From an uncultured Gammaproteobacteria bacterium (GTDB lineage Bacteria > Pseudomonadota > Gammaproteobacteria > CAWCPV01), in NCBI GenBank assembly GCA_963797555.1, contig CAWCPV010000003.1, forward strand, positions 864,001 to 928,000: a stretch of DNA of 64,000 bases, given 5' to 3'. A model generated the notes under the pieces. It saw only the letters and a list, made by a program, of their open reading frames with translations, was not told the origin of the DNA and ran no database searches. The translations under genes were made by a program, and so were the position numbers. This document shows, in pieces, positions 26,322-48,905 of the stretch (position 1 is the first letter of the stretch; each line of letters opens with the position of its first letter).

Positions 26322-26519
26322 ATGAACAAGCATTATTACGAGATTGTCGACCGCTTGGAAAAGATGGGCACCAACCGGGAATATATCGTTGGCTGGATGA
26401 CTGGCTATCTGGGAAACCCCGCCAGGGAAGAACAACGCACCAACGACGCTTACACTGCAGGTTACGAGGACGGCAAGAACGACACGACCGATCGGGCCGG
26501 GGCATGGAAGAAGGCGTAA
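26322..26519 (+). CDS. Alvin_2107-like small protein (sulfur globule oxidation associated)
   Basis: YYEIVDRLEK...EYIVGWMTGYLGNPAREEQR..DAYTAGYEDGK; GAGGAG RBS. Family recognised from recall. Confidence 0.7.
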   Translation: MNKHYYEIVDRLEKMGTNREYIVGWMTGYLGNPAREEQRTNDAYTAGYEDGKNDTTDRAGAWKKA

Positions 26520-26634: not shown

Positions 26635-27246
26635 TTACTGGTCTGGGTCGATGTTCATCGGCACATGACGGGGCGTGGTCCCGTATAGCGCGCCCACGGC
26701 CTGCCTGAGATTCTCTATGGCCTCAGGGCCGTCAATCTCGATAACCTGCTCCGCGATCCAACGATTCACCTGCTCCGACCCCATTAGTGCCTGGATCTTC
26801 TCCGCCAGATAGCGGAGCGCGCTGTAACTCGCCATCTCGGCATCAAATGGCATCTCGGCATAATCCTGCGAGCGTTCGTTGAGCAAAGCGATAAACGCCG
26901 TCCCGTAATTCGCCGGCCCTATCAGGTCGGTCTGGTTATCGTGGAGGTGTCTCGTAACGGCCCGCGCCACGGACGTTACGAAGCGCCCTCGGTCTTCGTC
27001 AACCATCTGGGGGGCGGTCAGGCGGTCCGATAGATGGACCAGGAATGCCAGATACTCGCTAACGACCCCAAGGCGCTGTCCGTCGGACTCGTAAACGTAG
27101 TCCTGCTCGTGCAAATTCTTCGCGCAGGTGACGGCGATACGCCAGATATTAGACGCCAGCACCACGGCGTTATCGTCCAAAGACCTGGTTCTGTCCTTGT
27201 CCCGCCACTTGGTTTTGAGCCGCATCCGCATAGCTGCTGTCTCCAT
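26635..27246 (-). CDS. Hypothetical protein
   Basis: 203-aa ORF with RLKTKW, EYLAFLVHLSDR and NRWIAEQVIEIDGPEA; GGAG RBS. Confidence 0.75.
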   Translation of the reverse strand: METAAMRMRLKTKWRDKDRTRSLDDNAVVLASNIWRIAVTCAKNLHEQDYVYESDGQRLGVVSEYLAFLVHLSDRLTAPQMVDEDRGRFVTSVARAVTRHLHDNQTDLIGPANYGTAFIALLNERSQDYAEMPFDAEMASYSALRYLAEKIQALMGSEQVNRWIAEQVIEIDGPEAIENLRQAVGALYGTTPRHVPMNIDPDQ

Positions 27247-27490: not shown

Positions 27491-28162
27491 ATGTTGCTAC
27501 GCATCCCTTCCGTCCTCTCTGCGCGCCAGATCGAGGCTGTTCGCAGCTTGCTGCACCGGGCCCATTTCGTGGACGGCAGACTGTCGGCGGGATCCGCCGC
27601 TGGCCGGGTCAAGCAGAACCAGGAACTGGACCAGAGCGCCCCCGAGCTGGACACCCTGAACAGCGTCGTCATGGGCAGCCTGGTGCGCCATTCGATCTAT
27701 CTCAGCGGAGCGCTACCGCAGCGTGTCGCCGTGCCCTATTACGCGCGTTATACGGCCGGCATGGCCTATGGGGACCATGTCGACGACCCGGTCATGGGCC
27801 CCGGGCCGCGCTACCGTTCGGATATCGCCATCACGGTGTTTCTGAGCGACCGGGAGGATTACGACGGCGGAGAACTCGTCGTCCGCACGCCCTTCGGGGA
27901 GCAAGAGATCAAGCTCCCCGCCGGCGACGCAGTGATGTACCCGGCATCTAGCCGGCATCGCGTCGCCGAGGTGACGCGCGGGGAGCGTTTGGTCGCACTG
28001 ACCTGGGTGCAAAGCCTGGTTCGGGATCCGGTAAGGCGGGAGCTCCTGTACGAGTTGGGACTGGCCAGAGACCGCCTCATGGAGGTATCGCCGGACGCCG
28101 AGGAGACGGCCCGAGTAAGCCACGCATACGCCAACCTCATCCGCATGTGGGCAGAGGTGTAA
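27491..28162 (+). CDS. PKHD-type Fe(II)/2OG hydroxylase (YbiX/PiuC family)
   Basis: FVDGRLSAG, YGDHVDD, RSDIAITVFLS, YDGGEL and HRVAEVTRGERL motifs. Confidence 0.9.
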   Translation: MLLRIPSVLSARQIEAVRSLLHRAHFVDGRLSAGSAAGRVKQNQELDQSAPELDTLNSVVMGSLVRHSIYLSGALPQRVAVPYYARYTAGMAYGDHVDDPVMGPGPRYRSDIAITVFLSDREDYDGGELVVRTPFGEQEIKLPAGDAVMYPASSRHRVAEVTRGERLVALTWVQSLVRDPVRRELLYELGLARDRLMEVSPDAEETARVSHAYANLIRMWAEV

Positions 28163-28373: not shown

Positions 28374-28577
28374 TCAGCGTTTCGAACCGACCTGCTGGTG
28401 GGCAAGATCGACCACTCTCATGGCAAGATCCTGGTATTCCTTGCGGAAGTTCTCCAGCGGGTGTCCGGAATCCGGGGTGTAGTAATCCTTCGGATCCACC
28501 CCGTGGGCATGCTCGTATGCCATGAACTGCTTTTGCAGCTCCAGCATTCGACGAATCAGCTCCTGCTTCTCACTCAT
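28374..28577 (-). CDS. Hypothetical protein (67 aa), last gene of the cas6-like operon
   Basis: GGAGG RBS; MSEKQELIRRMLELQKQFMAYEH...DYY...HPL...VVDLAH. Confidence 0.75.
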   Translation of the reverse strand: MSEKQELIRRMLELQKQFMAYEHAHGVDPKDYYTPDSGHPLENFRKEYQDLAMRVVDLAHQQVGSKR

Positions 28578-28657
28578 TGCACTGGCCTCCAAGACTGCCA
28601 TTATTTAAACAGTCTAACATACGGCGCTTGACTGTCTGCGCTTACTGCGCTTCGCCA

Positions 28658-28999
28658 TCAGTAACCGCCTTTGCGTCGGCTCTCCGGCAGACCGGCGATG
28701 CGCCCGGCCTGTTTGCTGGGGTCCAAGGGGAAAAGCTGGTAGAGCGAATTCGCGCTGACCTTCTGGTCACCCCATCTTTCCTGCATGCCCTTCACCATGC
28801 TTCGGGTGTTCGGCTGGCTCCCGGCATTGTTGAAATACTCGTCCCTCAAGTAATTGAGGACATCCCAATGGCGTTGGGTCAGCTCAATGCCCTCGCTGGC
28901 AGCGATCGCCTCAGCGACCCGCTCGTTCCAATCCTCTTGGTTGACCAAGAAACCGGGCGCAGTCATTTCAATGGTTCGCCCGTCGACTTCTAGTGCCAT
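28658..28999 (-). CDS. Cys-free DsrC/TusE-family paralog
   Basis: LEVDGRTIE...GFLVNQEDW...LTQRHWDVLNYLR...LYQLFPLDPSKQAGRIAGLPESRRKGGY. No cysteine. AAGGAG RBS. Confidence 0.88.
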   Translation of the reverse strand: MALEVDGRTIEMTAPGFLVNQEDWNERVAEAIAASEGIELTQRHWDVLNYLRDEYFNNAGSQPNTRSMVKGMQERWGDQKVSANSLYQLFPLDPSKQAGRIAGLPESRRKGGY

Positions 29000-29086
29000 A
29001 TATGTCGCTCCTTTAGCTCCTCTTCGAGGTCCACACATGCACCGACTCTTTGACCAGAGCCCACAACGTGACCAAAAACGTCCACT

Positions 29087-29777
29087 TCAGTCTCCGCTGA
29101 CCTGCTGGGCTGGTCCGACACCCTTGTGGGGAAGAAACAGGCCGCACCCAAGTTTGACGTCCAGGACCGAGGCCTCGCTGCTGCAGCCTGACGGATGCGT
29201 GGACTTCCAAATCGGCGACCATCAGACTACGGGTCAGGATGTCACTCCCGGGCGTCCTAATGACATGCGCTCGTCCACACACCAGCTTTCGAACGGGGAA
29301 GCCCTCCCCCTCTAGGAGGCCAGCCGCATGGGCGAGGAACTGCTGTTCGTCGGACTCCGGCGGCGCCGCCACATACCGTGCGAATAAGGTGGGTAGCGTG
29401 CTCAGGGGCCGCACCGAGGATTTCCCCACCTCCAGGGGGCAATCACCGACATCGAGCGTTGCGCCCACGAGCCTACGCGCCTGGCCCAGCCGTTCCTTGG
29501 GTAGGCGCAGTACCATCTTGGTGCGGCGAGAAAGGTGGAGCCGCTGGCCCGACGATTCGTCCGGCCGGTACCAGCCGTTACCAGATTCGGCCACATGGAT
29601 CTGGTGGATTCCCGCGTTGGGCTCGGTCCGCAACCAGGGGAGCACCGCCCATACCGCCTCGGCGAGCGCGTACGCGTGGTCCACCGGAAGAAGCCGGCCC
29701 GTGATCGCAAACGATAGGTCGACCACGTCGACTGGGACGACGTAGGGTTCCTGCGCCTCGTCTTGTTCCCAATAAAT
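29087..29777 (-). pseudogene. cas6: Stand-alone Cas6 (Cmx6/type I-MYXAN-like) RAMP protein with ATT start and +1 frameshift as sequenced
   Basis: VVDLSFAITGRLLPVDHAYAL, GIHQIH, LSRRTKMVLRLP and SVRLQQRGLGPGR. Removing the base at 29156 gives KLGCGLFLPHK, completing the GhGxxxxxGhG G-loop, with a stop at 29087-29089. Confidence 0.8.
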
Positions 29778-29778
29778 G

Positions 29779-30477
29779 TCAGTTCACCGGAAGCTTGACC
29801 CGGAGGGATTCCCGGTCGAACCACCATTCGTCCTGCACCAGCACGTCGACGACGTTGCGCAGTCGCGGCAGAAAGCGCTCGGGATCGTCCAACTGGAGTC
29901 GCTTGACCCACGCGTCGAACCCTTCCTGGGACAGGACTCGACTATGACGCTGGGCGACTCCCCCCAGCAGTTGATTGGCGAAGAAACGTAGGGTCGGTGC
30001 CTGCTCATCCGACGCGCGCAGATCCACCACATAAACGGCAGCAGCTGCGGCCACTGCAGCACCGTCAGAGTCGTCGGGCGTCTCGTCGACCACGTGCTCC
30101 AGCATGGCGAGGGTCAGCCCAGGATCCACAGGGTAGGTGACCGCCAACCAGATACCCTGACCAAGCGCACTCAGCGAGCCCGGTTGCTCGGCTCGAAACA
30201 GGATGTCGCAGGCCTCGACCGCTTGGTTCCACGCCTCGGCGGCGTGGCATGTCTCGAAAGCCTGACGAGCTACCTGCCAGGCATCTTCGCTCCGCTGCAA
30301 GGCCAGCAGGGTGCGCGCCATCTCGAGTCTCACGGCGACACCCTCCAACGGATGAGCGTCGGACAGCTCGCGCAGCCTCTCCCGTTGAGCGTCGAGGTGT
30401 GATTGCAGCGCATCCGCCGATGCGCTTTCCCCTAGCGCATGCGGCGGCGCGGCCTCGCCCAGTCCAAGATAGTTCAT
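29779..30477 (-). CDS. Hypothetical alpha-helical (TPR-like) protein
   Basis: AVEACDILF, ALGQGIWLAVTYPVDP.LT and DETPDDSDGAAVAAA. Its stop is 1 bp from the cas6-like start. Confidence 0.8.
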   Translation of the reverse strand: MNYLGLGEAAPPHALGESASADALQSHLDAQRERLRELSDAHPLEGVAVRLEMARTLLALQRSEDAWQVARQAFETCHAAEAWNQAVEACDILFRAEQPGSLSALGQGIWLAVTYPVDPGLTLAMLEHVVDETPDDSDGAAVAAAAAVYVVDLRASDEQAPTLRFFANQLLGGVAQRHSRVLSQEGFDAWVKRLQLDDPERFLPRLRNVVDVLVQDEWWFDRESLRVKLPVN

Positions 30478-30511
30478 CGATCGCTCCGGAGTCCAGAGCC
30501 ATGCCGGCCCC

Positions 30512-30706
30512 TTACTTGATAGCCGCGCTGAACGCTGCCTCCAACCGGTCTTCCCAATCCTCCGGGGTGTCGGGGAATGGGGGCTTGACATCCATGCGGA
30601 AGAATACCTCGCCGCCTCGGGCGGCCTCCTGGACTACTTTCACCAAGTCATCGAACGACTGCAGCGTATGCTGGGAGATCAGTATCTCGCTTAGCCAGAG
30701 CATCAC
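30512..30706 (-). CDS. Hypothetical small protein (about 63 aa)
   Basis: LWLSEILI...FFRMDVKPPFPDTPEDWEDRLEAAF; GGGAG RBS; 12 bp after the TauD-like gene. Confidence 0.75.
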   Translation of the reverse strand: MMLWLSEILISQHTLQSFDDLVKVVQEAARGGEVFFRMDVKPPFPDTPEDWEDRLEAAFSAAIK

Positions 30707-30718
30707 GCTCCCCGGGGA

Positions 30719-31663
30719 CTAAGCAGCGACCGCGCAGCCAGTTGCATCGATGCGGTCGTAGTATCTGGCCCGGTAGACTAGGCGCTGTCGGCCGATTCCG
30801 GCGTCGTCAACGAACGCAGTCCGGCTATGCAGCACGTTGTTGCAGACGATACCCTGCCCCGGCTCAAGGCGATGCCGCAACAAGTACGGGGACTCCGCCA
30901 AGAGGCACTGGAGGAACTCCACCGCCGCTCCAGTAGTCCGGTCGGGCTTCCAGTGGATGTTACGCTTGCGGGCCGTGTAACGCATATGGAGGCTGCCCGT
31001 GCCCGCATCCACCGAGAACACCGGACCGGACTGGGCAGCGCGGATCTCGCAACCGTCCTCCATGTTCGGCGGGATGGTCATGGCGTCTGTCTGCATCAGC
31101 GCCGACACAAGACGCGGATCGTGGTCACGCATCAGCAGATAGGCCATCTCGTGGTCGAACAACGCATTCTCGCCGCCACTCGCGGCGTCCTGGGCGCACA
31201 GCAGGATAAAGGCACGGATCCGCTGCGGCGGCGGATTATAATAGCCGTCCGTATGCCAGCTAAGCGGACGATTAGTGTAGGGTATATATCCTTGGTGCCT
31301 GCCCTCGGACTTCACCTGCACAGAGGTCACGCTATCTTCATCAGCGCACAAATTGAAGTCTAAGCGCCGCAACCCAAGCTGCTCACCGACGCTGCGCACC
31401 GCCGACTTGTCCACCGGTTGCGGGCGCCGGCAGGCGAAGATAGCCGTATTTGTTTTGTGACAAGCTCGCAAGATCGCCTCCCGCTCCCCGCGGGTCAGGG
31501 AAAACAGATCCCGAACCTCGACTAACAGGTCATCGGCCGAACGCGGGTAGCCCGAAACTTTCCGGTCGCGCCATCTTTCGTATGCCGACTGAGCACTGAG
31601 ATCGAAAGGCCCAAGCCCATCCCAGCTTAGCCGAGATGCCAGGCCTGCCACCTGCACCTCCAC
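30719..31663 (-). CDS. TauD/TfdA-family Fe(II)/2OG dioxygenase
   Basis: LSWHTDGYY, GGENALFDH, CNNVLHSRTAF and RLVYRARY motifs. Confidence 0.85.
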   Translation of the reverse strand: MEVQVAGLASRLSWDGLGPFDLSAQSAYERWRDRKVSGYPRSADDLLVEVRDLFSLTRGEREAILRACHKTNTAIFACRRPQPVDKSAVRSVGEQLGLRRLDFNLCADEDSVTSVQVKSEGRHQGYIPYTNRPLSWHTDGYYNPPPQRIRAFILLCAQDAASGGENALFDHEMAYLLMRDHDPRLVSALMQTDAMTIPPNMEDGCEIRAAQSGPVFSVDAGTGSLHMRYTARKRNIHWKPDRTTGAAVEFLQCLLAESPYLLRHRLEPGQGIVCNNVLHSRTAFVDDAGIGRQRLVYRARYYDRIDATGCAVAA

Positions 31664-32429
31664 GAGCGCGAAACACGTGCCACAGCATGCACCTCGACTC
31701 TACTTCATGCAGCCCGGCAGGCTGCAAAAGCTATCGTCAGCAATCCACCGGACAACGTCATGGTAACCAATAAATCATAATAAAGTTGGGCGCTTATGTA
31801 AACCGGGCGGAAACGCCAAAGAACTGGCGCATTTCTGGCACCGCCTGCCTCCGGAAACACGCGCATGCCGGCGGATGGCGCCGGCATCTGCAGCCGCCTG
31901 GCCGAGCGCCAAAACGCCGACGCCGGGACGTGGGCAGCACTCCGGGGAAAGTGCGGCAGGGGACCCTGGACAGCGGGGGCATGGCAGACGTGTTGAGCGC
32001 GGTCGACAGGCCGGGCGGGTCGTCGTGGAAAGGTCCCAATCACGCTCGGGTCTTCCCGGACCTTCACGCGGTGGATTTGGCCGAGTAACATGATGGGGGG
32101 GTCTGCCGACGAGCGGCCCGAGAGGTGGCCCCAGCATCGCCATCGCCTCGCCGAAGGACCTCGATCATCAGCCGCCCCGGAGGACAGGCCGGTGCAACAG
32201 CTCATCGATGCCAGCAGAGCCGCACGCCTCGCAGGGGTGCCGCACGAGAGATCCAGCGCCAGATCGTGGCGGGCAGCCTGCCGACCTGCGAAGGGGTCGG
32301 CGAACTCAGGCGCCTGGAGTACCCGTACTCAAGTCGCGGCTAACCGCTTTGCCATCCCTTGTCTGTTGTCCCTCACACTGGCGCCCACGGGATCCATTGA
32401 TGAGGGTAGCGGCACTGACGTTCGACACC

Positions 32430-34652: not shown

Positions 34653-36068
34653 TCAGTGCATGCCGACCGCGTGCCGCCAACTCTCCCGGGCCCTCCGGCA
34701 ACGACGCACGTAGGCCACGAAACGGCTCACCCAACGGTTGTCCTCTGCGTCGCGCTGGTGCGCATAGCTGGCGAGAACGCGTCTGTACACGATCCCGTCG
34801 TGATTCCCATCGATTCCAGCGCCTCTGAGCACCCGATAAGCGAACTCGATGCCCTCGCCAAGGTTCTCCACACTCGAGTGATGGAATTCGTGAGCGGCGA
34901 ACTCTGCGGGCCTCCCGTCGGAGCTGAGCAGCGGCCAGGGCCCCTTACCGGTCTCCTGCAAGCGCACATAACCGCGCCCCATCGGCCGGTCGTGCATCAC
35001 CACGTCAGCCGGGATGGCGCCGACCATGGCGCAGCTCTGACCCCGCCAAGTAATGCGCCGTGCTAGATACATGAGACCTCCACACTCGGCGTACACCGGC
35101 ATATCCGCTTCGATGAACCGACGCACGTCGGCGCGCAGCGCCGCATTCTTCTGCAGGGCGGCCATGTGCGTCTCCGGGAATCCACCCCCGATGAACAGGG
35201 CATCCACGTCCGGCAGGAGACCAGCGCTGAGCGTGTCAAAGGGCACGATGTCCGCTCCTGCGGACCGCATGGCCTCCAAATCCCCCGGGTAGTAGAAGCC
35301 GAATGCCGCGTCTCGCGCCACGCCGATGCGCACGTCGGGAACTGGGTCGGGACTGCGTGAGGTCCCGAGCACGTTTTCCGAGTCCTGGGCTTGTCCGGCC
35401 ACCTCGAGCACCGCGCCGAGGTCCACATGCGCCGCGACGAGGCGTGCGATCTGCTCGACGCGCGCATCCGGCTGACCGGCTTCGTTGCTCGGTATCAGAC
35501 CAATGTGACGCTCGACAATCTCCATATCGGCGTGATTCGGCACCGCGCCGAGGACACGCACATCCGTGTAGTGCTCGATTACGGCGCGAAGCTTGCCCTC
35601 GTGCCGGCTTCCTCCAAGACGGTTCAGGATCACCCCGGCGATGTGGATATCCGGCTCGAATGCCTGGTACCCCAGAATAAGCGGCGCGATGCCGCGGGTC
35701 ATGCCGCGGGCGTCGATGGCCAGAACCACGGGCGAACCCAGTAGGCTCGCCAGGGCAGCATTGCTGTTGCTGCCGTGCAGATCCAGCCCGTCATAGAGCC
35801 CCTTGTTACCCTCGATGACGGCGAGATCTGCACCGGCCGCGTAGCGGGCGAACGTCGCCCGAATCTCCGACCTGCCCATGGTGTAGAAGTCCAGGTTGTG
35901 GCACGGACGTCCCGCCGCCCGCCCGAGCCACATCGGATCGATGTAGTCCGGCCCTTTCTTGAACGGCTGCACGACGTGGCCACGGGCCGCGAGGGCCGCG
36001 CATAGTCCGATGCTGACCGTAGTCTTGCCCGAGGACTTGTGAGCGGCAGAGATTAGCAGATGGGGCAT
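34653..36068 (-). CDS. dsrN: Siroheme amidase DsrN (CbiA/CobB-like)
   Basis: HKSSGKTT, FKKGPDYIDP, IEGNKGLYDG, AECGGLMYL and HEFH motifs. Confidence 0.9.
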   Translation of the reverse strand: MPHLLISAAHKSSGKTTVSIGLCAALAARGHVVQPFKKGPDYIDPMWLGRAAGRPCHNLDFYTMGRSEIRATFARYAAGADLAVIEGNKGLYDGLDLHGSNSNAALASLLGSPVVLAIDARGMTRGIAPLILGYQAFEPDIHIAGVILNRLGGSRHEGKLRAVIEHYTDVRVLGAVPNHADMEIVERHIGLIPSNEAGQPDARVEQIARLVAAHVDLGAVLEVAGQAQDSENVLGTSRSPDPVPDVRIGVARDAAFGFYYPGDLEAMRSAGADIVPFDTLSAGLLPDVDALFIGGGFPETHMAALQKNAALRADVRRFIEADMPVYAECGGLMYLARRITWRGQSCAMVGAIPADVVMHDRPMGRGYVRLQETGKGPWPLLSSDGRPAEFAAHEFHHSSVENLGEGIEFAYRVLRGAGIDGNHDGIVYRRVLASYAHQRDAEDNRWVSRFVAYVRRCRRARESWRHAVGMH

Positions 36069-36217
36069 GCCCAAGCGACCTGCGTCAACGTGAGGACGGT
36101 CTTCCGCCGTCCAGTGGGGATTGGCGCGGCCCGACAGCAAGATACCGCAACGCCGTGCGCCGAGCCTTAGTCCACGCGGTCCCGCTGCGCCGCACGGGCG
36201 CCGCAGAAGCAAACACC

Positions 36218-37462
36218 TCAGGCTGTTGCCGGCTTCGCGCCCACCTGCGACGGCTCGCCGGCAGCGTGGGGATCCACCTGCTCATCCGCCAGGCTTTTCG
36301 GGAGGAAAGGAAGCACCTTAATGGCAACGGCTGCCATGAGCAACGCGATGGCTACGCCACCCACACCCAGCGCCACCTCGGGCACACTCGGGACATAGTG
36401 CGCCACCGTTCCGTCGAAGAAGGCGCTGCGCACCTCCATGCCCGGAAACATCAGGAGCGGATAGGCCTGGCCGCCGATGATGGTGACGTACATCTGGCCC
36501 AGTCCGCCGACCACCACCAGTGCCGCACCCACCACCGTCCAAAGCCGACTGCCGCTGAACGGCGTCAGGTAGAAGAGCACCAACGGGATGAGCCCCCCAA
36601 TCCCCACCTGCACAAGCCAGAACACGGCAGTGTAGGAACCCCCGTCCAGCAGGATGAAGCGCTCCACGCCATGGTGGTTCGTCATGTACAGGTTGGTAAG
36701 GTGGTAGACCAAGACGAAGTACAGCACGGCAGCGACAAATACGCCGAGCAGATTCTTCAGGCGCCTCACCACGGCATCACCCAAAGGACGCCCGGCGCTC
36801 CGGTAGGCGGCCATCATGACCAGCAGGAATATCGCGGTCCCATAGGCAAACGACATGACCACGAACATCGGCGCCATGATGGCCGAATCGTAAGCCTGTC
36901 GCGCAACCAGGAAACCGAATATGGACCCGGTGCCGGTGGTCAGGATGAGCCGCCACAGAAACGCGAAGAAACCCACCGGCTTGCTATAGGGGTTCATGCG
37001 CCGCTCCATCATCATCCACACGTACACTGCCACCAAGCCGATGAACCCGGTATACAGGAAGATGTTCCAGGCGAAAATGGACTTGAAGTTGTAATAGGTC
37101 ATGGCCACGATGAGCCTGTCCGGCCGCCCGAGGTCGAGAACGAGCACGCACAGTCCCCCGACGAGGAGCGCGATGGCCAGCAGCCCAGAGAGCCTCGCCA
37201 GCGGTTTATAGAGACTCCGGCCGAACACGGAGGCGATGGACGCGACGTTCAGCGCGCCGGAGGCAGCGACGATCAGGAAAACCGCGAACACGTGCGGCGT
37301 GCCCCACACGATCTGGTTGCTCATGCCGGTGACTCGGTGACCCTGCGTTTCCATGTAATAGGCCGCCGCCAGCCCGATGGCCACCAGCCCAGCCAGCAGC
37401 GCCACAAGGCCCCAATAGCCTGCGCTGCGCCCTGCGAGTTCCTGGTATTCGATGGTTTTCAT
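36218..37462 (-). CDS. dsrP: DsrP (NrfD/PsrC-family membrane subunit)
   Basis: TGMSNQIVWG.PH and DLGRPDRL motifs, with multiple transmembrane helices. Confidence 0.92.
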   Translation of the reverse strand: MKTIEYQELAGRSAGYWGLVALLAGLVAIGLAAAYYMETQGHRVTGMSNQIVWGTPHVFAVFLIVAASGALNVASIASVFGRSLYKPLARLSGLLAIALLVGGLCVLVLDLGRPDRLIVAMTYYNFKSIFAWNIFLYTGFIGLVAVYVWMMMERRMNPYSKPVGFFAFLWRLILTTGTGSIFGFLVARQAYDSAIMAPMFVVMSFAYGTAIFLLVMMAAYRSAGRPLGDAVVRRLKNLLGVFVAAVLYFVLVYHLTNLYMTNHHGVERFILLDGGSYTAVFWLVQVGIGGLIPLVLFYLTPFSGSRLWTVVGAALVVVGGLGQMYVTIIGGQAYPLLMFPGMEVRSAFFDGTVAHYVPSVPEVALGVGGVAIALLMAAVAIKVLPFLPKSLADEQVDPHAAGEPSQVGAKPATA

Positions 37463-37630
37463 GTGTCCCTACAAGCAGTCATCCTGAAGTATACGCCGGG
37501 TGCTGTAGGTCCCACTCACCCGCTTGCGGGAGGAGCTAGCGGCGACGGAACCCGTCATGGCGCGAGCGTTTTCCTGCGCCCGGACGGCGAAAGCCGCCAT
37601 GAGCGGTTTGGGTAGCGCGGCCGGGGCCCC

Positions 37631-38378
37631 TCATACGCCCTGGTAGCGCACGCCGGTATTCAGCTCGAGATCGGCCCGGACCTGTCGGCTCACCACCTGT
37701 CGAGCCCGCTTGGAGATGTCGCTGTCGGGATTATTCATATCCCCGAACACCATCGCACCACCAGCCTTCGCGCTACAGGCCTCGACGCAGGCCGGGATAC
37801 GCCCGGTGTCCACCCGCTGCACGCAGAAGGTACAGCTCTCCACTGTCCCCTTGCCTCGCGGCACCTGGGTGACCTGCTCGTGCAGGGGCTCGTGGACAAA
37901 GGAGCGCGCCTTATACGGACAGGCCATCATGCAGTAGCGGCAGCCGATACAGATGTGCTTGTCCACCAGCACGATGCCGTCCGCGCGGCGGAACGACGCG
38001 CCGGTCGGACAGACATCCACGCAAGGCGGATGCTCACAGTGCTGGCAGAGCATCGGGAGGGTGATGCCTTCCCCGTAGTCTTGTCCCGCAGATCCACTTT
38101 GCGGATCCACTGCGCATCGATCCGGGACGATCGGTGACACTCCAGCCGTTTTCATCACCGCAAGCCTTCACGCACGCATCGCAGCCCTCGGCGCACTTGG
38201 TCGCATCGATCAGCATCCCCCAGCGCACCGCAGACGACACAGGCTCATCCGCCGAGCGCGCTCTGACCAAGTCTACCAGCCGAATCCCGGGTGCCAACAT
38301 GAGCAGGGCTGTTGCCGCCGCAGCCGTCCCCAGGAACTCCCGGCGCCCGCTGTCGGGCTGATCTTCCCTCTTGCTCAC
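37631..38378 (-). CDS. dsrO: DsrO (Tat-exported 4Fe-4S protein); two single-base frameshifts as sequenced
   Basis: RREFL Tat signal and CAEGCDAC. A bridging frame IDAQWIRKVDLRDKTTGK lies between shifts near 38122 and 38066, then LCQHCEHPPCVDVCP and CIGCRYCMMACP. Confidence 0.88.
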
Positions 38379-38860
38379 CGTGCCACCCCTGCGCCAGAAA
38401 CGTGACTCGCTGACCTGCCCTTTTCCGCGGGACTCTTGTGCTCCGCCTCCCGCACCTCGAACTCACTTTCCCGTGGCACCGTTGCGTGACACTGGAAGCA
38501 GTCGATCTCCACGGCCGCGTACTCGTGGCAACTCTCGCAGAACTGCCCCCGTGCGTTCACCGGCACGGGCTTGCCCGTGTGATCCTTGCTGACATGGCAG
38601 GCCACGCACTCCGCGAGACTGTGTCGTGTGGTGCGTATGCCCAGATGCATGGTCTCATCGCGCTGATGCAAGATGAATTCCATATGGTCACGCCGCATCA
38701 CGTCGATGGGCTCGACGCATTGCTGCGTCGCGCTGAACCTCGCGTTGGCCTCGGGGTGGCTGGGCAAGGGCACCCGGCTATCCCTGGCCGCCACCGGACC
38801 CGCGGCAAGCGCCGCCGCGAGCGCCAGCCCGATGATACTCACAGGCTTCAAGCCGCGCAT
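38375..38860 (-). CDS. dsrJ: DsrJ triheme cytochrome c
   Basis: Signal peptide; CVACH, CESCH and CFQCH heme motifs; MRRDHM. Confidence 0.92.
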   Translation of the reverse strand: MRGLKPVSIIGLALAAALAAGPVAARDSRVPLPSHPEANARFSATQQCVEPIDVMRRDHMEFILHQRDETMHLGIRTTRHSLAECVACHVSKDHTGKPVPVNARGQFCESCHEYAAVEIDCFQCHATVPRESEFEVREAEHKSPAEKGRSASHVSGAGVAR

Positions 38861-38872
38861 TCCCGACCGACC

Positions 38873-40822
38873 CTAGTCGCCCATCCCCATATCGATGTAG
38901 CCGGTCGGGCACACGTCGGAGCAGATGTGGCACCCGATACAGCGCGTATAGTCGGTGTCCACGTAGCGACCGGTCGTCGCCTCGGTCTTCTTCACTCGGA
39001 ACACCGCATCCTGAGGGCAGAACACGACGCAGTTGTCGCATTCGAAACACATGCCGCAGCTCATGCAGCGCTTCGCCTCGGCAACCGCCTGCTCGTCGGT
39101 GTAACCGAGCATCCGCTCCTCGAAGTGGCCGATCACTTCGTCCCCCACGGGGCCGTGCTCCGCGCGCTTGTTGCGGGGCGTGTACTGGAAGTGGGCCAGG
39201 AACAGCTTGTCGGCAGGAATGATTTCGTGCGCCGCGCGGTCCTCGTAGTTGTGAACCGCGAACTTGGCCGACGATGTTCCCCATACGTTCTCGTGACTGT
39301 AACCCTCCGGTTCGAGGCCGGCCTCCCGGAGCTTGCTGAGCAGATTGAAATGGTGCACGTCCACCTTGGGGCGCTTGCTGAGTTCCTGATGTTTCATGTA
39401 GTACTCGATGCTCTCCACCGCGATGGAGGCTTGCCCGATGGCCGTAGTCAGCAGGTGCGGACGCACGATGTCCCCAGCCACGAAGTGCCCGGGCCGTCCA
39501 GGCACCTGGTAGTGCTTGTCCGCATTGATGAAGCCGCGGCCGTTGTCCAGACCTTCCAGCCCCTGACTCATGTCCCCGGACTGTCCGATGGCAGACACGA
39601 ACAGGTCGGCCTGTAGGACAAACTCCGTGCCCTGCCGCGGCACCGGGCGGTTGCCCTGCATGTCGCACTCGCACAGCCGCATCCCGATAGCCCGGCCGTT
39701 CTCGTCCTTGAGAATCTCTAGCGGCATGACACTGCCCCGGATATCCACCCCTTCCTGGATGGCGTCGTGTACCTCGTGCTCGGCAGCGGTCATCTTCTCG
39801 ATCGGGAACAGGGAGGTGAGGGTTACTTGGGCCCCCTCGCGCACCAGCGTGGCGGACACGTCATGCGCGGTGAATCCCCACACCACGTTCTCGGGGCGGT
39901 CCTTGTCACGTACGCTGGTGATATGACCGAGGCGCCGTGCCACTGACGCCACGTCGATGGAGGTATCACCGCCGCCCACCACCACCACGCGACCGGACAC
40001 GACCTGCAGCCTGCCCTCGTTGAACGCGCTCAGGAAGTCCACGCCGGAAACACAGTTCGGGGCGTCCCAGCCGGCGACCGGCAGACCCTTTCCTTTCTTG
40101 GTTCCGATCGCCCAGAGGATGGCGTCGAACTCCTGCTCCAGGGCCTCTACGCTCACGTCCTTGCCCACACGGGTGTTGGCCCGCACCTGCACACCCATGT
40201 CGATGATCCGCTGGATCTCGCCATCCAGCACGTCGCGCGGGGTCCGGTAACCCGGAATTCCGTAGCGCATCATGCCGCCCAGTCCGACGTGGTCGTCGAA
40301 GATGGTGCAGCCATGACCCTTGCGCCGCAGCTGGTAAGCAGCGGCCAAGCCCGCCGGACCACCGCCGATGATGGCCACCTTCTTGCCGGTCTCCTGAGCA
40401 GGCGCGGGAAACTTCAAACCGTTCTTCAGGGCGGTGTCACCGATGAACTGCTCCACCGCGTTGATGCCGACGTGATCCTCGACCTCGTTGCGGTTGCACC
40501 CATCCTCGCACGGCGCCGGACATACGCGCCCCATCACCCCCGGAAACGGATTCGCGTCCGTGGAGCGGCGAAACGCATATTCCTGCCAAGTTACATCCTT
40601 TGGCGGCTTCTCGATGCCACGCACGATGTCCAGCCAGCCGCGGATGTCTTCGCCGGAGGGACAGCTCCCCTGACAAGGCGGGGTGCGGTGGACATAGGTT
40701 GGGCACTTATGGGAGTAATCTCCCACGAAGATCTGCTGCTGGAAAGACTCCCAGGTATGCTGGCCGTCCCGGAACTTGCGGAACGTCAGGTCTTTCCTCA
40801 CGTCTTCAGTAGAACTTGCCAT
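38873..40822 (-). CDS. dsrL: DsrL iron-sulfur flavoprotein
   Basis: PPCQGSCP, GRVCPAPCEDGCNR, GGGPAG, and C-terminal CMSCGMCFECDNC and CIGCHICSDVCP. Confidence 0.95.
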   Translation of the reverse strand: MASSTEDVRKDLTFRKFRDGQHTWESFQQQIFVGDYSHKCPTYVHRTPPCQGSCPSGEDIRGWLDIVRGIEKPPKDVTWQEYAFRRSTDANPFPGVMGRVCPAPCEDGCNRNEVEDHVGINAVEQFIGDTALKNGLKFPAPAQETGKKVAIIGGGPAGLAAAYQLRRKGHGCTIFDDHVGLGGMMRYGIPGYRTPRDVLDGEIQRIIDMGVQVRANTRVGKDVSVEALEQEFDAILWAIGTKKGKGLPVAGWDAPNCVSGVDFLSAFNEGRLQVVSGRVVVVGGGDTSIDVASVARRLGHITSVRDKDRPENVVWGFTAHDVSATLVREGAQVTLTSLFPIEKMTAAEHEVHDAIQEGVDIRGSVMPLEILKDENGRAIGMRLCECDMQGNRPVPRQGTEFVLQADLFVSAIGQSGDMSQGLEGLDNGRGFINADKHYQVPGRPGHFVAGDIVRPHLLTTAIGQASIAVESIEYYMKHQELSKRPKVDVHHFNLLSKLREAGLEPEGYSHENVWGTSSAKFAVHNYEDRAAHEIIPADKLFLAHFQYTPRNKRAEHGPVGDEVIGHFEERMLGYTDEQAVAEAKRCMSCGMCFECDNCVVFCPQDAVFRVKKTEATTGRYVDTDYTRCIGCHICSDVCPTGYIDMGMGD

Positions 40823-40890
40823 CGTGCTCTCCTCTGCCGTTTGTCCAGGCGGACCGGACTTCGACGGTCATCCGTCACCCGCGCCCAGGG

Positions 40891-42396
40891 TCAGTGCGTC
40901 GTACCGAATTCCAGCGCGTCCCCCACCAGTTGGTGGACGCTCACGATCATGTCCATGCCGAAGCCATAATACGGCAACACCTTGGCGAACTGGCTCTTGC
41001 AGATGGCGCAGATGGCCGCCATGTGCGTCACGCCGTGGTCGTCCACGACGCGCTTGAGAGCCTCCATCCGCGGCAGGGCCCCTTTGACGCGCAGTTCCAT
41101 CAGGTCGTCCGTGAGCAGCCCGCCGCCGCCGCCGCAGCAGAAGGTCGCCTCGCCGATGGTCTCCGGCGCCATGTCGTAGAAACGCCGACAGGAGGCCTTG
41201 ATGATCTCCCGGGGGATGGTGAACTGCCCGCCAGGCATGTCACCCATGCGCGACGCGCGCGACACGTTGCACGAGTCGTGAAAAGTCAGCACCCGGTGGT
41301 CATTGGCCTCTTTATTCAATCTCAGGGCGCCCCGTTGGATCAGGTCGTAGGTGAGCTCGCAGATGTGCTGCGGGACGGGGTAGCGCTTGTCCAGGAAGTC
41401 GAACGGACCGATGAGCGTATTCCAGAAGCTGTACGCCACACGCCAGGCGTGCCCACACTCCCCCACCACGATGCGCTTGACCCCGAGATCCAGGGCCGCG
41501 TCGCGGATGCGCTGGGCCACCTTCTGCATGTTCTGATAGCTGCCGATGAAAATCCCGAAGTTTGCCGCCTCCGAGGCGTAGGAACTCAGCGTCCAGCGGA
41601 TGCCCGCTTGGTGGAACACCTTGCCATAGCCGATCAGCCCATCGACGTGAGGCTCCGCGAAGAAGTCCGCGGAAGGCGTGATGAGAAGGACTTCGGCACC
41701 TTTCTCGTCCACCGGATACCGGACGTCCGCCCCGGTACCCGTCTTGACCTCTTCCTCCAAGCCTTCCAGCGTATCCCGCAAGGCTGGCTCCGGCAGACCC
41801 AGGTTGTTCCCAATCTTGTGGACCTTGCCGATGATCTCGTTGGAGTACTTTTGTCCGATGCCGACACTGTCCAGAATCTCGCGCCCGGCCATGGTGATTT
41901 CGGCCGTGTCGATGCCGAACGGGCAGTACACCGAACAACGCCGACACTCGGAGCACTGGTGGTAGTACTTGTACCAGTCCTCCAGCACCTCCTCGGTCAG
42001 GTCCGCAGCGCCGACCAGTTTCGGGAAGTATTTGCCGCCAACGGTGAAGTAGCGCCGATAGACCTTGCGCAGCAGGTCCTGGCGTGCCACCGGCATGTTC
42101 TTGGGGTCCGCCGTCCCCAGATAGTAGTGGCACTTATCCGTGCAGGCGCCGCACTTGACACAGGAGTCCAGGAACACCTGCACCGAACGGTACTTGCCGA
42201 GGATCTCGCCCATCTTGTCGATGGCAACATCCTTCCAGTTGTCCACCAGCTTGCCTGGGAACCCGAGGGCGTCCTGGTGCTGCGGAGACGCCACAAAAGG
42301 CTTGCTGTGAGCCATCGCCCCCTCGCGAATGCGGGGGATGACCGTGACTTCCTTGAGTTCCGGCGTTTGGAACTTGTGCTGACCTGCGTGGGCCAC
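40891..42396 (-). CDS. dsrK: DsrK (HdrD-like catalytic subunit)
   Basis: CVKCGACTDKC, CSECRRCSVYCP, GECGH, HDSC, CCGGGG and CAIC motifs. Confidence 0.95.
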   Translation of the reverse strand: MAHAGQHKFQTPELKEVTVIPRIREGAMAHSKPFVASPQHQDALGFPGKLVDNWKDVAIDKMGEILGKYRSVQVFLDSCVKCGACTDKCHYYLGTADPKNMPVARQDLLRKVYRRYFTVGGKYFPKLVGAADLTEEVLEDWYKYYHQCSECRRCSVYCPFGIDTAEITMAGREILDSVGIGQKYSNEIIGKVHKIGNNLGLPEPALRDTLEGLEEEVKTGTGADVRYPVDEKGAEVLLITPSADFFAEPHVDGLIGYGKVFHQAGIRWTLSSYASEAANFGIFIGSYQNMQKVAQRIRDAALDLGVKRIVVGECGHAWRVAYSFWNTLIGPFDFLDKRYPVPQHICELTYDLIQRGALRLNKEANDHRVLTFHDSCNVSRASRMGDMPGGQFTIPREIIKASCRRFYDMAPETIGEATFCCGGGGGLLTDDLMELRVKGALPRMEALKRVVDDHGVTHMAAICAICKSQFAKVLPYYGFGMDMIVSVHQLVGDALEFGTTH

Positions 42397-42416
42397 TGGC
42401 TTACTCCTCTGTCAGG

Positions 42417-43154
42417 TCACTGACCACCAGCGCGGAGCTGCTCTGCCCACGCCGCGACGTGCCGCTTCTCTCGCGGATTGTCCACTTGGTTGCGCGTCGG
42501 ACTAAAGAACAACCCGGGTGCATGGAGCAGCTTGCTGTAAGGGAACACGATCAGGAGTGTGGCGACCAGCGCTAGGTGGATCAGCAGCATGGGATCGGCG
42601 GGCAGCCGCTGCCAATCGAAGTACATGAGCCCGAGGACAAACGCCTTCAGGCGCACGACGTCGGTGTGCCAGACGTACCTCATCAACAGCCCGCTCGCCC
42701 CGATGCCCACGAGCAGGGCCAGCATCAGGTGGTCAGAGGGTGCGGAGATGTAGCGAACACGATCGACGAGGAACCGGCGCCCCCATAACCCCAGCAGACC
42801 GAGGACCATGGCGTACGCCGCGTACTTTCCATACGGCTGCACCAGCTCAACCCAGTCCCACACCGGGTGGGTAAAATACCGCAGGTGGCGCAGCAGAACG
42901 AGCAGCAAAGCGAAATGGAAGACCCAGCCGAATAGCCACGTCCACTTGTTGCCCTTGAACAGGCTTTGGAAGAACACCACCTCGCGGAACATCCTAGCCA
43001 CGACACCGGCCCGGGTGGTAGGCGCCGGGGTCGTCGGAATCTTCAGCGGCGCTGGGATGCGTGCATACCGCTGGACGCGATATGTCAGCCCGCCGACGAG
43101 AATTGCGGTCGCCGCGTAAAAGAGCAGTGCATAAACAAACGTCAGAACCCACAT
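42417..43154 (-). CDS. dsrM: DsrM (NarI-like cytochrome b)
   Basis: PAPLKIPTTPAP, GWVFH, RHLRYF and IHL...PYSKLLHAPG motifs. Confidence 0.95.
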   Translation of the reverse strand: MWVLTFVYALLFYAATAILVGGLTYRVQRYARIPAPLKIPTTPAPTTRAGVVARMFREVVFFQSLFKGNKWTWLFGWVFHFALLLVLLRHLRYFTHPVWDWVELVQPYGKYAAYAMVLGLLGLWGRRFLVDRVRYISAPSDHLMLALLVGIGASGLLMRYVWHTDVVRLKAFVLGLMYFDWQRLPADPMLLIHLALVATLLIVFPYSKLLHAPGLFFSPTRNQVDNPREKRHVAAWAEQLRAGGQ

Positions 43155-43192
43155 GGTCCCGCAGCCTTATCCAGATGGACTGAGAAGGGGCG

Positions 43193-43216
43193 CGGGGGGC
43201 GTATTCGCGCCCCCCG
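43193..43216 (-). terminator. GC-rich hairpin immediately 3' of dsrC (partial terminator or mRNA stabiliser)
   Basis: Perfect 9-bp stem CGGGGGGCG/CGCCCCCCG with a 6-nt loop; only a weak U-tract. Confidence 0.55.
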
Positions 43217-43227
43217 ACGAATCCGAA

Positions 43228-43560
43228 TCAGACGCAACCGGTCGGCTTGGGCAGACCGGCGTACTTGCATGCCTGCTTCGCCGGACCGTACGGGAACAGC
43301 TCGTAGAGGTACTTGCTGTTGCCCTTGTCCGGCCCCAGCTTCTTGCCGATAGCCTTGGTCAGGACGCGAACAGCGGGTGCGATCTGGTATTCCTGATAGT
43401 ACTCTCGCAGGAAATTGAGCACTTCCCAATGGCTCTCGCTCAGAGGCAGGCCATCCTCTGTCGCCATCTTGTCGGCCACCTCGGGCTCCCAGTCGCTCAG
43501 GTTGGCCAGGTAACCCTCCTCGTCCGTCTCCAGCATCTTCCCGTTGACTTCAATCGCCAT
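43228..43560 (-). CDS. dsrC: DsrC sulfur carrier (canonical, CysB and CysA)
   Basis: LFPYGPAKQACKYAGLPKPTGCV. Confidence 0.97.
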   Translation of the reverse strand: MAIEVNGKMLETDEEGYLANLSDWEPEVADKMATEDGLPLSESHWEVLNFLREYYQEYQIAPAVRVLTKAIGKKLGPDKGNSKYLYELFPYGPAKQACKYAGLPKPTGCV

Positions 43561-43605
43561 GATGCCGTCTCCTCGTCGTCGCTAATAAACAGACTGTGCT
43601 ACAGT

Positions 43606-43908
43606 TCACAGCCAGGACTGGACCTTGTCGTGCTCGACCACGAGGTCCACGAACCCGCCATAATCGACGAGATGCACGCCGTCGATCACCTTGGTCTCCT
43701 CCATTCCGCGCGCCTTGAGGTCGGGTCCCAGGACATAGACCCGGTGGCGCTCCATCGCCTGCCTTATGTCACCTTCCACGACCGTCCCTTTCATGGCTGC
43801 GTACACCCCATCCTCTATGAACAGGATCGCGCTGCCGGGCTTGGCCAGCCGCAAACAGGCATCCAAGCTTCTCTTCTCGAACGGTGACTTATTTACCGTG
43901 TGCAACAT
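43606..43908 (-). CDS. dsrH: DsrH
   Basis: MLHTVNKSPF...IEDGVYAA...DLKARG. Confidence 0.95.
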   Translation of the reverse strand: MLHTVNKSPFEKRSLDACLRLAKPGSAILFIEDGVYAAMKGTVVEGDIRQAMERHRVYVLGPDLKARGMEETKVIDGVHLVDYGGFVDLVVEHDKVQSWL

Positions 43909-43924
43909 CCCAGGTCGGGCCTCC

Positions 43925-44323
43925 CTAGTAGTTCAGGATGACGTCCTGCTGTTCCAGCAAGTCAGCAAGCTGCGCGCGGCCGAGCACCTCCACCGGGACC
44001 ATCAGATCATCCTCGGTCAGGCCACGCTCCTCCAGCGACTCCTTCTCTACGTAAAGCTTCTCCACGTCATACATCTCCAAGGCTCGGTACGTGGGGGAGA
44101 AATTCTTCATGCCGGACTGGGAAGTATCCTGCCCTTTCTTGAGCTGATACACCCCGTCGTCCACGAACGCCACGCTCACGTCCTGCTCGAACGCCGCACC
44201 GATCAGCACCACCTCCAGACCCTCGAGCGCGTAGATGGTGCCGTAGGGCGCCCTGCGGTTGACGTACATGAACTTCTTGACTACACCGCCCTGCCGACCG
44301 TCGTCTTCCATCATCTCAGCCAT
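43925..44323 (-). CDS. dsrF: DsrF
   Basis: KKFMYVNRRAPYGTIYALE...DDGVYQLKKGQ. Confidence 0.93.
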   Translation of the reverse strand: MAEMMEDDGRQGGVVKKFMYVNRRAPYGTIYALEGLEVVLIGAAFEQDVSVAFVDDGVYQLKKGQDTSQSGMKNFSPTYRALEMYDVEKLYVEKESLEERGLTEDDLMVPVEVLGRAQLADLLEQQDVILNY

Positions 44324-44338
44324 CCGCTCGATGCTCCG

Positions 44339-44731
44339 TCAGTCCCCGAAGGCCACCAGACGATCCGCCTGGACGCCTGCCTCGATAAGCTGACCCAGGC
44401 CGGAGATGCGAAAGCCGGGGGCGATGTTGTCGGCATCCTTGCCGTGACGCTTCTTCTCTTCGACATCCACGATGCCACGGCGCTGGGCGGCAGCCACGCA
44501 GACCACCAGATCGAGCCCATACTTCTCGGCGAGATCCGTCCAGCGCTTCTGGATGTGCCGGTCGTCCTGGGGCGGCGTGGTGAGACGTGTGCCGTTGTTC
44601 ACACCGTCGTGGTAGAAGAACACGCGATACACCTGGTGACCCTTCTCCAACGCCGCCTTGGTGAACTGGTACGCGCTGTCGGCGGCCTGATGCGTGTAGG
44701 GCCCCTCGTTTACGAGTATGGCGAGCTTCAT
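44339..44731 (-). CDS. dsrE: DsrE sulfurtransferase
   Basis: NEGPY, VFFYHDGV and VCVAAAQRRG (active-site Cys); ATG at 44731. Confidence 0.95.
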   Translation of the reverse strand: MKLAILVNEGPYTHQAADSAYQFTKAALEKGHQVYRVFFYHDGVNNGTRLTTPPQDDRHIQKRWTDLAEKYGLDLVVCVAAAQRRGIVDVEEKKRHGKDADNIAPGFRISGLGQLIEAGVQADRLVAFGD

Positions 44732-44748
44732 GGGCGTGCGACTATCGC

Positions 44749-45825: not shown

Positions 45826-45934
45826 TGCTAACCTCCAAACGGGTATTGCGCAGACATTAAGCTGGCGCAGAGGGCGGTAGCATGTCCCGCCCCACGCGCC
45901 GCCCTACGATACGGCGTCTCTGCGAAGGGACCAG

Positions 45935-47206: not shown

Positions 47207-47445
47207 GGCGTTCGCCTCCTGTCAATCCTCGGTTTGCACGTCGATTAATCGAGACAGATTATGTCAAGTCCGCGCGAGAGGAGAAATCTGCGACAGGCCA
47301 GACCGGCAACACCCGCCCGCCCACCGGCCGGCACGCACCACCCAGCCTTCGCTCGCGCCCACCGCAACCGCCCAACTACGCCAACTTCGCTCGCCGCGCG
47401 AGGATACTCAAGGTCATATATAGTAACGCAGCCTCGGAGCGGCGC

Positions 47446-47499
47446 ATACCCTACCGATGGGATAAGGTATTGCCGACGCCCTACCCCAAAAGAGATAGG
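47446..47499. promoter_or_regulatory. Two imperfect inverted repeats upstream of dsrA (candidate activator sites)
   Basis: ATACCCTACCGATGGGATAAGGTAT and CCTACCCCAAAAGAGATAGG, upstream of a minus-strand TACTAT -10-like hexamer near 47421-47426. Confidence 0.3.
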
Positions 47500-48902: not shown

Positions 48903-48905
48903 GGG

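Follow-up and report, generated by a model that had tools for sequence, protein, structure and literature searches.

Evidence for a CRISPR-independent clade of Cas6/Cmx6-family proteins tied to the dsr genes of Gammaproteobacteria

We analysed a 64,000-nucleotide stretch of DNA (hereafter the window) from an uncultured gammaproteobacterium (assembly GCA_963797555.1, contig CAWCPV010000003.1, positions 864,001 to 928,000 of the forward strand), in which a gene coding for a Cas6-like protein lies in the same neighbourhood as the dsr genes of sulfur oxidation. An earlier reading of the letters without database searches (the sequence-only reading) had described a group of six co-oriented genes, here called the module. 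All six are indeed on the minus strand, and the gaps of 12, 34, 1, 87 and 80 bp given for them are exact when translation is taken to start at 30477 for the helical protein, 29777 for the Cas6-like protein and 28577 for the small protein p75. The identities proposed for the TauD-like, Cas6/Cmx6-like and Cys-free DsrC-like products were borne out by Pfam and NCBIfam matches. The module and the dsr cluster comprise the following features.

30719..31663, minus strand: TauD-family Fe(II)/2-oxoglutarate (2OG) dioxygenase, dsrQ-type gene (PF02668, E 9.7e-22)
30512..30706, minus strand: p64, conserved 64-aa protein, usually found with the TauD-like gene (no match in Pfam or NCBIfam)
29779..30477, minus strand: helical protein, optional module member; the open reading frame (ORF) opens at 30591 and the likely start is the internal ATG at 30477
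29087..29777, minus strand: Cas6/Cmx6-family RAMP gene of the dsr-linked clade (PF09559, TIGR02807); start position occupied by ATT, frame shifted by 1 nt near 29154
28658..28999, minus strand: Cys-free DsrC/TusE-family protein with C-terminus RKGGY (PF04358, E 1.8e-34; TIGR03342, 103.6 bits)
28374..28601, minus strand: p75, small conserved protein, 75 aa from 28601 or 67 aa from 28577 (no family match)
34653..47206, minus strand: dsr cluster with dsrA, B, M, K, L, O, P and N (Pfam matches)
45935-47206, minus strand: dsrA (TIGR02064, 639.8 bits)
44749-45825, minus strand: dsrB (Pfam)
34653-36212, minus strand: dsrN (Pfam)

The Cas6-like protein of the window matched PF09559 with 174.7 bits (E 2.8e-51; cut-off 26.7) and the NCBIfam model TIGR02807 (cas6_cmx6) with 107.8 bits (cut-off 98.85). 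Its fold was assessed on P0003, an intact relative 67% identical to the window protein, whose model was built with 64 aligned sequences and reached a predicted local distance difference test score (pLDDT) of 91.2 and a predicted template modelling score (pTM) of 0.86. Foldseek comparison of this model with the PDB returned the Cas6 of a type I-B CRISPR-associated transposon (CAST) as best match (8fcj_B and 8fcu_B, E 5e-16, TM 0.75-0.81), followed by Pyrococcus and Thermus Cas6 and Cse3 structures, and the top hits were all Cas6/Cse3 chains. A comparison of the sequence profile with PDB sequences also found 8fcj_B, at E 2.6e-25. The claim that the gene codes for a Cas6-type RAMP protein was thus upheld by hidden Markov models, with both families above their cut-offs, and by structure prediction, the P0003 model having a two-domain RAMP (ferredoxin-like) architecture; that the Cas6-like protein has the RAMP fold, as modelled, is not in doubt. 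An Asp-His motif, (V)DH, after strand 1 and a Gly-rich loop of the form G.G..RK.GCG.F are conserved both in the proteins encoded beside dsr (dsr-type) and in those encoded in CRISPR-Cas loci (CRISPR-type). H34, the presumed catalytic residue, never varies among 48 dsr-type proteins and is also conserved in the 40 CRISPR-type ones, and the solved CAST Cas6 has Asn at that position. Among the basic residues of the dsr-type proteins, R71, R85, R91 and R134 are invariant and K164, R183 and K218 nearly so. Because the Asp-His motif, the Gly-rich loop and many Arg and Lys residues are retained, we infer that RNA binding, possibly with cleavage, has persisted.

The Cas6-like gene is not part of a CRISPR-Cas locus. 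The window was found, as claimed earlier, to be free of CRISPR-like repeat runs and of Cas1 or Cas3 matches, which the genome has on other contigs, and the usual neighbours of a type I-MYXAN cmx6 gene (cas3, cmx8, cas7/devR, cas5/devS, cas4-cas1, cas2 and an array) are absent from the window. The genome holds a single PF09559 gene and at least five CRISPR-Cas loci (contigs C2, C4, C7, C9, C17 and C20), of types I-G, I-E and I-C, with two carrying a Cas6 of the PF10040 type. The type I-G locus encodes Csb2, the type I-E array is accompanied by Cas6e and the type I-C array by fragments of Cas5d as their own processing enzymes, and one repeat family is present on three contigs, two of its arrays having PF10040-type Cas6 genes nearby. 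None of the repeats in this genome resembles those that lie beside true Cmx6 genes of the I-MYXAN type.

To place the gene in a wider context, we used a sample of 401 genomes drawn evenly from the window's class, the window's genome included, recording PF09559 and dsrA (TIGR02064, E up to 1e-30) in each and comparing the two lists by hand, as with the Cas1 and phylum counts below. PF09559 was present in 124 of the 401 genomes, nearly always as a single copy, and dsrA in 126; 119 genomes had both, 5 had PF09559 only, 7 had dsrA only and 270 had neither. Three of the five genomes with PF09559 only (G131, G166 and G257) carry a dsr-type module in which the contig stops at the TauD-like gene. The fourth, G021, has a complete type I-MYXAN locus (L128) with Cmx6, Cas3, Cmx8, Cas7/DevR, Cas5/DevS, Cas4-Cas1, Cas2 and 18 repeats, and the fifth, G307, is CRISPR-linked going by coordinates alone (Cas6 and Cas1 on one contig). 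Four of the seven genomes with dsrA only were fetched: a contig end cuts beside dsrA in G292, G374 and G152, and in G239 (92% complete) the 6 kb upstream of dsrA do not contain the module. The remaining three are 55-81% complete. Two genomes of 1.1 Mb (G186 and G346) retain the Cas6-like gene within 2.5 kb of dsrA, and p203, a neighbour of the module described below, is also retained in a 1.1-Mb genome. In a sample of 381 genomes from the phylum, dsrA was present in 61, of which 4 belong to the class, and all 4 carry PF09559.

Cas1 matched in 136 of the 401 class genomes (57/124 of those with PF09559 and 79/277 of the remainder), in a scan at E up to 1e-10 in which absence of Cas1 does not prove absence of an array. 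No Cas1 match was obtained in 67 of the 124 PF09559 genomes; six of the 67 are single-contig genomes with a completeness of 99-100%. The window protein shares 25-29% identity with CRISPR-linked Cmx6 proteins, which measure about 200 aa, versus about 230 aa for the dsr type. For a quick maximum-likelihood tree, 48 proteins of verified dsr context were combined with 40 that are related to the G021 Cmx6 and with 36 representatives retrieved using P0003 (124 in all); the 40 CRISPR-type proteins fall on one side of a branch of length 1.07 (Shimodaira-Hasegawa-like approximate likelihood ratio test, SH-aLRT, 99). An insertion of the GNGW type was found in 43 of the 48 dsr-type versus 0 of the 40 CRISPR-type proteins and is absent from the solved CAST Cas6. 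We are highly confident that the gene belongs to a distinct, CRISPR-independent Cas6/Cmx6 clade tied to dsr, a degree of confidence that applies to identity and dsr link alone.

A pattern scan of one genome per species confirmed at least 588 relatives, and the best 80 loci were examined by tblastn with the window proteins as queries; the counts below come only from loci with enough flanking DNA. The recurring order has dsrB-dsrA on one strand and, on the other, the TauD-like gene, p64, (the helical protein), the Cas6-like gene, the DsrC-like gene and p75, after which come a convergent PKHD-type 2OG oxygenase, p203 and p65. In 47 of 52 loci dsrA is divergent from the module, the dsrA and cas6 starts being separated by a median of 1645 bp. 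The sequence-only reading had placed cas6-annotated genes near dsr in other sulfur oxidizers; with dsrA in 119 of the 124 PF09559 genomes and this divergent arrangement, the association proved far stronger than guessed, and homologues are mostly dsr-linked rather than located in CRISPR loci. Upstream of the Cas6-like gene, p64 was found in 61 of 62 loci, the TauD-like gene in 54 and the helical protein in 18; downstream, the DsrC-like gene was found in 50 of 54 loci, p75 in 39, the 2OG oxygenase in 45, p203 in 40 and p65 in 29. Record titles name the sulfur oxidizers Thioalkalivibrio, Thiohalobacter, Thiogranum, Sulfuricaulis, Candidatus Parabeggiatoa and Candidatus Thiomargarita. Two divergent genomes of the class, G730 and G701, have dsrBA followed by the Cas6-like gene, the DsrC-like gene, p203 and the TauD-like gene; their Cas6-like proteins lack the GNGW loop, yet their genes adjoin a DsrC-like gene whose product ends in ...GKGGY. 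Because the two genes are kept beside each other in these rearranged lineages, the Cas6-like/DsrC-like pair appears from gene order to be the most stable unit of the module.

Outside the class, four of six fetched loci have the TauD-like gene and p64 divergent from dsrA without the Cas6/DsrC-like pair, and a fifth has the TauD-like gene only. The four are L140, L142, L143 and L144, in which neither the Cas6-like gene nor a KGGY-type DsrC gene was found; in L140, genes for a pyridine-nucleotide-disulfide oxidoreductase, a PF03601 protein and a DsrE2-like protein come next after the TauD-like/p64 genes. In two of the loci that do carry a Cas6-like gene, L020 and L021, dsrN, P, L, K and dsrC adjoin p64 and the Cas6-like gene, with no dsrAB or TauD-like gene between them by tblastn.

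In the window, the module lies at the distal end of dsr, beyond dsrN, with the TauD-like gene about 14 kb from dsrA. The description of an operon next to the dsr cluster is accordingly true of the window, where it refers to a rearranged state, the usual site in relatives being divergent from dsrA. Judging by gene order, the module of the window has moved to the opposite end of dsr. The surrounding features are listed here.

31774..31802, minus strand: sigma-70-like promoter match 5' of the TauD-like gene (TTTACA-17-TATGAT, 10/12; consensus match only)
32208-32738, plus strand: S24 peptidase-domain gene, divergent from the TauD-like gene, between dsrN and the module
32817-34268, minus strand: Lpd-like pyridine-nucleotide-disulfide oxidoreductase gene, next after dsrN, between dsrN and the module
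27491..28162, plus strand: PKHD-type 2OG-Fe(II) oxygenase, convergent neighbour (PF13640, PF18331)
26635..27246, minus strand: p203, conserved 203-aa protein, frequent module neighbour (no known family)
26322..26519, plus strand: p65, conserved 65-aa protein, frequent module neighbour (29 of 54 loci)
47405..47507, no strand assigned: conserved cis element 5' of dsrA with two short palindromes/hairpins, which stayed with dsrA here

An ISL3-family transposase gene that is broken up into ORFs of 385 aa and 85 aa (24667-26078) adjoins the distal end of the relocated module and may have taken part in the rearrangement. The site that the module occupies upstream of dsrA in relatives is filled here by polyhydroxyalkanoate (PHA) synthase genes (PhaC-like and PhaE, 47838-50135). 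S24 matches were also seen near the module in loci L063 and L146.

The DsrC-like partner of the Cas6-like gene matched PF04358 (118.8 bits) and TIGR03342 over its full length. It contains no Cys and ends in ...ESRRKGGY. Among its orthologues, 62 of 74 lack Cys, and all full-length ones end in ...AGLPxxxRKGGY; the (R)KGGY ending is constant in the orthologues of L018-L096, L133, L146 and L147. One orthologue, L042:10828-11163, has an internal stop codon. DsrC or TusE proper was ruled out as the identity of this protein, which lacks the Cys pair of the ...PTGC(V) arm, leaving a Cys-free paralogue. Members of the DsrC family without Cys are reportedly called RspA and proposed to be regulatory. 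Sulfur-carrier proteins expose a terminal GG after processing, and the KGGY tail of the DsrC-like protein recalls these. A complex prediction for p64, the DsrC-like and the Cas6-like proteins (L063 sequences with alignments) scored 0.01 against a mark of 0.32, a result that bears neither way on binding. No Pfam or NCBIfam match was found for p64, the helical protein or p75, the helical protein giving only a sub-threshold tetratricopeptide repeat hint (E 1.4). The p64 model had a pLDDT of 90.8 and no fold match in the PDB; the automatic name of its ESM Atlas cluster, 'sulfur relay protein DsrC', was rejected after a profile-profile comparison with the DsrC-like family gave 0.2% probability. For p203, only unnamed ESM Atlas clusters matched.

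The copy of the Cas6-like gene in this assembly departs from its relatives in two places. Aligned with 13 relatives, the protein is homologous from residue 1, where relatives have Met-Tyr/Phe-Trp versus ATT-TAT-TGG in the window, one base past the stop codon of the upstream gene, and the 17 residues after ATT retain conservation at the protein level. The reading frame breaks after ...GLGPGRQ, and the next frame continues as LGCGLFLPHKGVGP..., the conserved Gly-rich C-terminus, matching the intact C-terminus of P0001, a metagenome protein 95% identical. As assembled, the frameshift therefore cuts off a C-terminal Gly-rich loop that relatives possess and that the window still encodes in the next frame. 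The shift concerns a single base in a T run: base 29154, at the exact break, is missing from contigs of two marsh-metagenome runs (X2 and X4) that are about 96-97% identical to the window. Several cas genes of the assembly (cas1, cas4/1g and cas5d) are also in pieces, which suggests indel errors or decay there, and the genome scored 84.6% complete despite its long contigs. Since the contigs of relatives lack base 29154 and cas genes of the assembly are split as well, the frameshift is probably an assembly indel error rather than gene decay. The X2 and X4 contigs have no listed change at the ATT. For this reason the ATT may be a feature of the lineage, possibly serving as a start through translational coupling; ATT is a permitted start codon in translation table 11.

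The spacer between dsrA and the TauD-like gene of relatives contains a conserved element, GAAGTCTAGG, about 19 nt, ACCCTACCCATGGGGT, 17 nt and then CTATCCCnnnnGGGATAG. In the window it spans about 100 nt (47405-47507). Lying about 240 bp upstream of dsrA and away from the module, it evidently stayed with dsrA when the module moved. The element was found in 54 of the 80 loci (L019-L096). Its alignment comprises 41 of 58 dsrA-TauD spacers plus the region upstream of dsrA in the window, the remaining spacers lacking both motifs, and the palindrome spacing is 17 nt in 38 of the 41 sequences and 16 nt in 3. Within its own genome the element gave only one match at E < 0.8. RNAalifold predicted two short hairpins in it, and the element may act as paired RNA hairpins, similar in size to those that Cas6 enzymes bind. 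It may equally serve as an operator to which a dimeric DNA-binding protein binds, and the DsrC-like protein is one possible candidate. The DsrC of Allochromatium vinosum reportedly binds DNA upstream of dsrA. A search of PMC3397948 yielded nothing on DNA binding by DsrC.

The reading that we favour, with a confidence falling a little short of an even chance for the statement as a whole, is that a CRISPR-independent Cas6 clade became an accessory of the oxidative dsr system in the window's class and kept a role with RNA. The Cas6-like gene forms a pair with the gene of a DsrC paralogue that has no Cys and carries (R)KGGY at the end of its C-terminal arm; the two genes usually lie inside a dsrQ operon divergent from dsrA. 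The Cas6-like protein would still bind specific RNA, and possibly cut it, and the two proteins would control sulfur-oxidation genes post-transcriptionally or escort their mRNA, the target being dsr mRNA or the module's own mRNA. A more specific version, which we put forward as speculation and consider somewhat unlikely as worded, is that a Cas6 endoribonuclease was domesticated once in Gammaproteobacteria as a permanent component of the sulfur-oxidation apparatus. With a Cys-free DsrC mimic bearing a KGGY tail it would form an RNA-binding switch through which sulfur or redox state, perhaps by way of the two Fe/2OG oxygenases, governs how dsr mRNA is processed, stabilised or translated.

Several results weigh against this reading. 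The closest conserved neighbour of the Cas6-like gene codes for a sulfur-relay-family protein and is not an RNA gene, and the GNGW insertion is missing from the divergent in-class members G730 and G701. In the dsrA-upstream element, the covariation term is -0.49 and 91.7% of cells pair versus 89.7% in shuffles, the two sides varying nearly independently. Because the palindrome sides show almost no covariation, the palindromes look no less like a DNA operator than like an RNA hairpin, and the element stands without an adjoining module in the window and in G239. Folding of the cas6-dsrC-like spacers (58 of 63, those of up to 200 nt, plus the window's own) revealed no shared hairpin, and positions 26000-48500 gave no Rfam match at E up to 1. 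PF09559 was found in none of the 57 out-of-class dsrA genomes, counted together whatever the type of their dsrA (oxidative or reductive); for this reason the Cas6-like gene is not required by every Dsr system. The window copy itself may be inactive, should its frameshift and its ATT start both prove to be true lesions. As for the sequence-only reading, its proposal of an RNA module controlling sulfur oxidation stands as regards the Cas6/RAMP fold, the dsr link and the location outside CRISPR; no conserved hairpin in the operon and no target RNA were found, and the processing of the dsr transcript that it offered as an example found no direct support.

Several of these points would suit a Cas6 fold re-used without RNA. 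The protein would then partner the KGGY-type DsrC paralogue by binding protein or ligand, for example as an assembly, protection or regulatory factor of DsrAB/DsrC or in an O2- or 2-oxoglutarate-dependent modification system of the two dioxygenases. The tightest neighbour is a DsrC-family protein with an invariant ...AGLPxxxRKGGY arm, two Fe(II)/2OG oxygenases accompany the pair, no RNA target was found, and the GNGW loop, LSRRT and the N-terminal MxW replace several CRISPR-type motifs. However, selection has preserved the Gly-rich loop and Asp-His motif of RNA-processing Cas6 proteins together with many of their basic residues, and we know of no Cas6 with a non-RNA role. We regard this explanation as a serious minority possibility, and our leading inference remains an RNA-binding or RNA-processing role, which we rank above it. 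That the Cas6-like protein is instead an ordinary enzyme processing CRISPR RNA (crRNA) in trans, with its array at another site in this genome, might be suggested by the several CRISPR-Cas loci of this genome and by the somewhat higher frequency of Cas1 among PF09559 genomes than in the rest. The search for such a cognate array found none: each locus encodes its own processing enzyme, the PF09559 gene is single and no array has I-MYXAN-type, Cmx6-like repeats, which makes the explanation very unlikely. Over half of the carriers are without a Cas1 match, the gene tracks dsrA and not cas genes, and its identity with CRISPR-linked Cmx6 is low, all of which count against it further.

A different doubt concerns the window copy only, which could be a decaying pseudogene, displaced from dsrA, deprived of its ATG and frameshifted, in a family that is otherwise functional. 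The ATT at the start position, the loss of the conserved C-terminal loop and the relocation of the module beside a split ISL3 transposase all fit such decay. Against it stand the nature of the shift, a single base in a T run that the contigs of relatives lack, the conservation that persists in the 17 residues after ATT, the unchanged and permissible ATT in relatives, which points to a feature of the lineage, and the splitting of other genes in the assembly, as expected from indel errors. We consider decay of this copy unlikely.

Annotation pipelines label this gene 'type I-MYXAN CRISPR-associated protein Cas6/Cmx6', and its match exceeds the equivalog cut-off. In the class sample, about 122 of the 124 PF09559 genomes carry it with dsr and not with CRISPR, and the gene therefore inflates counts of 'CRISPR proteins' in sulfur oxidizers and symbionts. 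It is a near-universal, uncharacterised companion of reverse Dsr (rDsr) in one major class of sulfur oxidizers, its DsrC-paralogue partner being equally uncharacterised, and the control of dsr expression and of DsrAB/DsrC function is still poorly understood. For the evolution of CRISPR, the favoured reading would, if true, provide a clean case of a single Cas protein co-opted by a housekeeping pathway; its more specific version would make this the first Cas protein recruited into core energy metabolism, kept even in symbiont-sized genomes of 1.1 Mb. Cultured carriers include Thioalkalivibrio denitrificans ALJD (L063), Thiohalobacter thiocyanaticus (L065) and Thioalkalivibrio sulfidiphilus.

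Among known systems, the first gene of the module corresponds to dsrQ. According to a passage of Loffler et al. 2020 (PMC7596348), a tauD-like gene upstream of dsrA was named 'dsrQ' by Lenk et al. 2012, is present in most aerobic chemotrophic sulfur oxidizers and was proposed to release sulfite from sulfonates. The module likewise begins with a TauD-family dioxygenase gene that is divergent from dsrA in relatives. In contrast, that passage of PMC7596348 mentions the tauD-like gene alone, with no Cas6-like or DsrC-like gene, and the window copy is not beside dsrA. We found no paper tying a Cas6 homologue to dsr, although Lenk et al. 2012 or its supplements might mention the gene; the CRISPR/Cas6 passages of PMC5361782 and PMC10952691 make no mention of such a link. 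The neighbouring protein matches over its full length the family for which the name DsrC/TusE/RspA is in use in passages of PMC8477390, but both redox Cys are missing and (R)KGGY replaces ...PTGCV.

The Cas6/Cmx6 of type I-MYXAN (I-B-like) systems shares with the window protein its Pfam and NCBIfam families, a two-domain RAMP fold and the Asp-His motif, and with the intact dsr-type relatives also the Gly-rich loop. Unlike it, the window gene is without adjoining cas genes or array and tracks dsrA. The dsr type is also about 30 residues longer than CRISPR-type Cmx6, owing to an N-terminal MxW extension, a GNGW loop of about 10 residues and a C-terminal tail, and several CRISPR-type motifs are absent from it. 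In CRISPR-associated transposons, Cas components likewise serve a non-immune role, with crRNA guides and arrays kept, whereas here a lone Cas6 is found beside core energy-metabolism genes.

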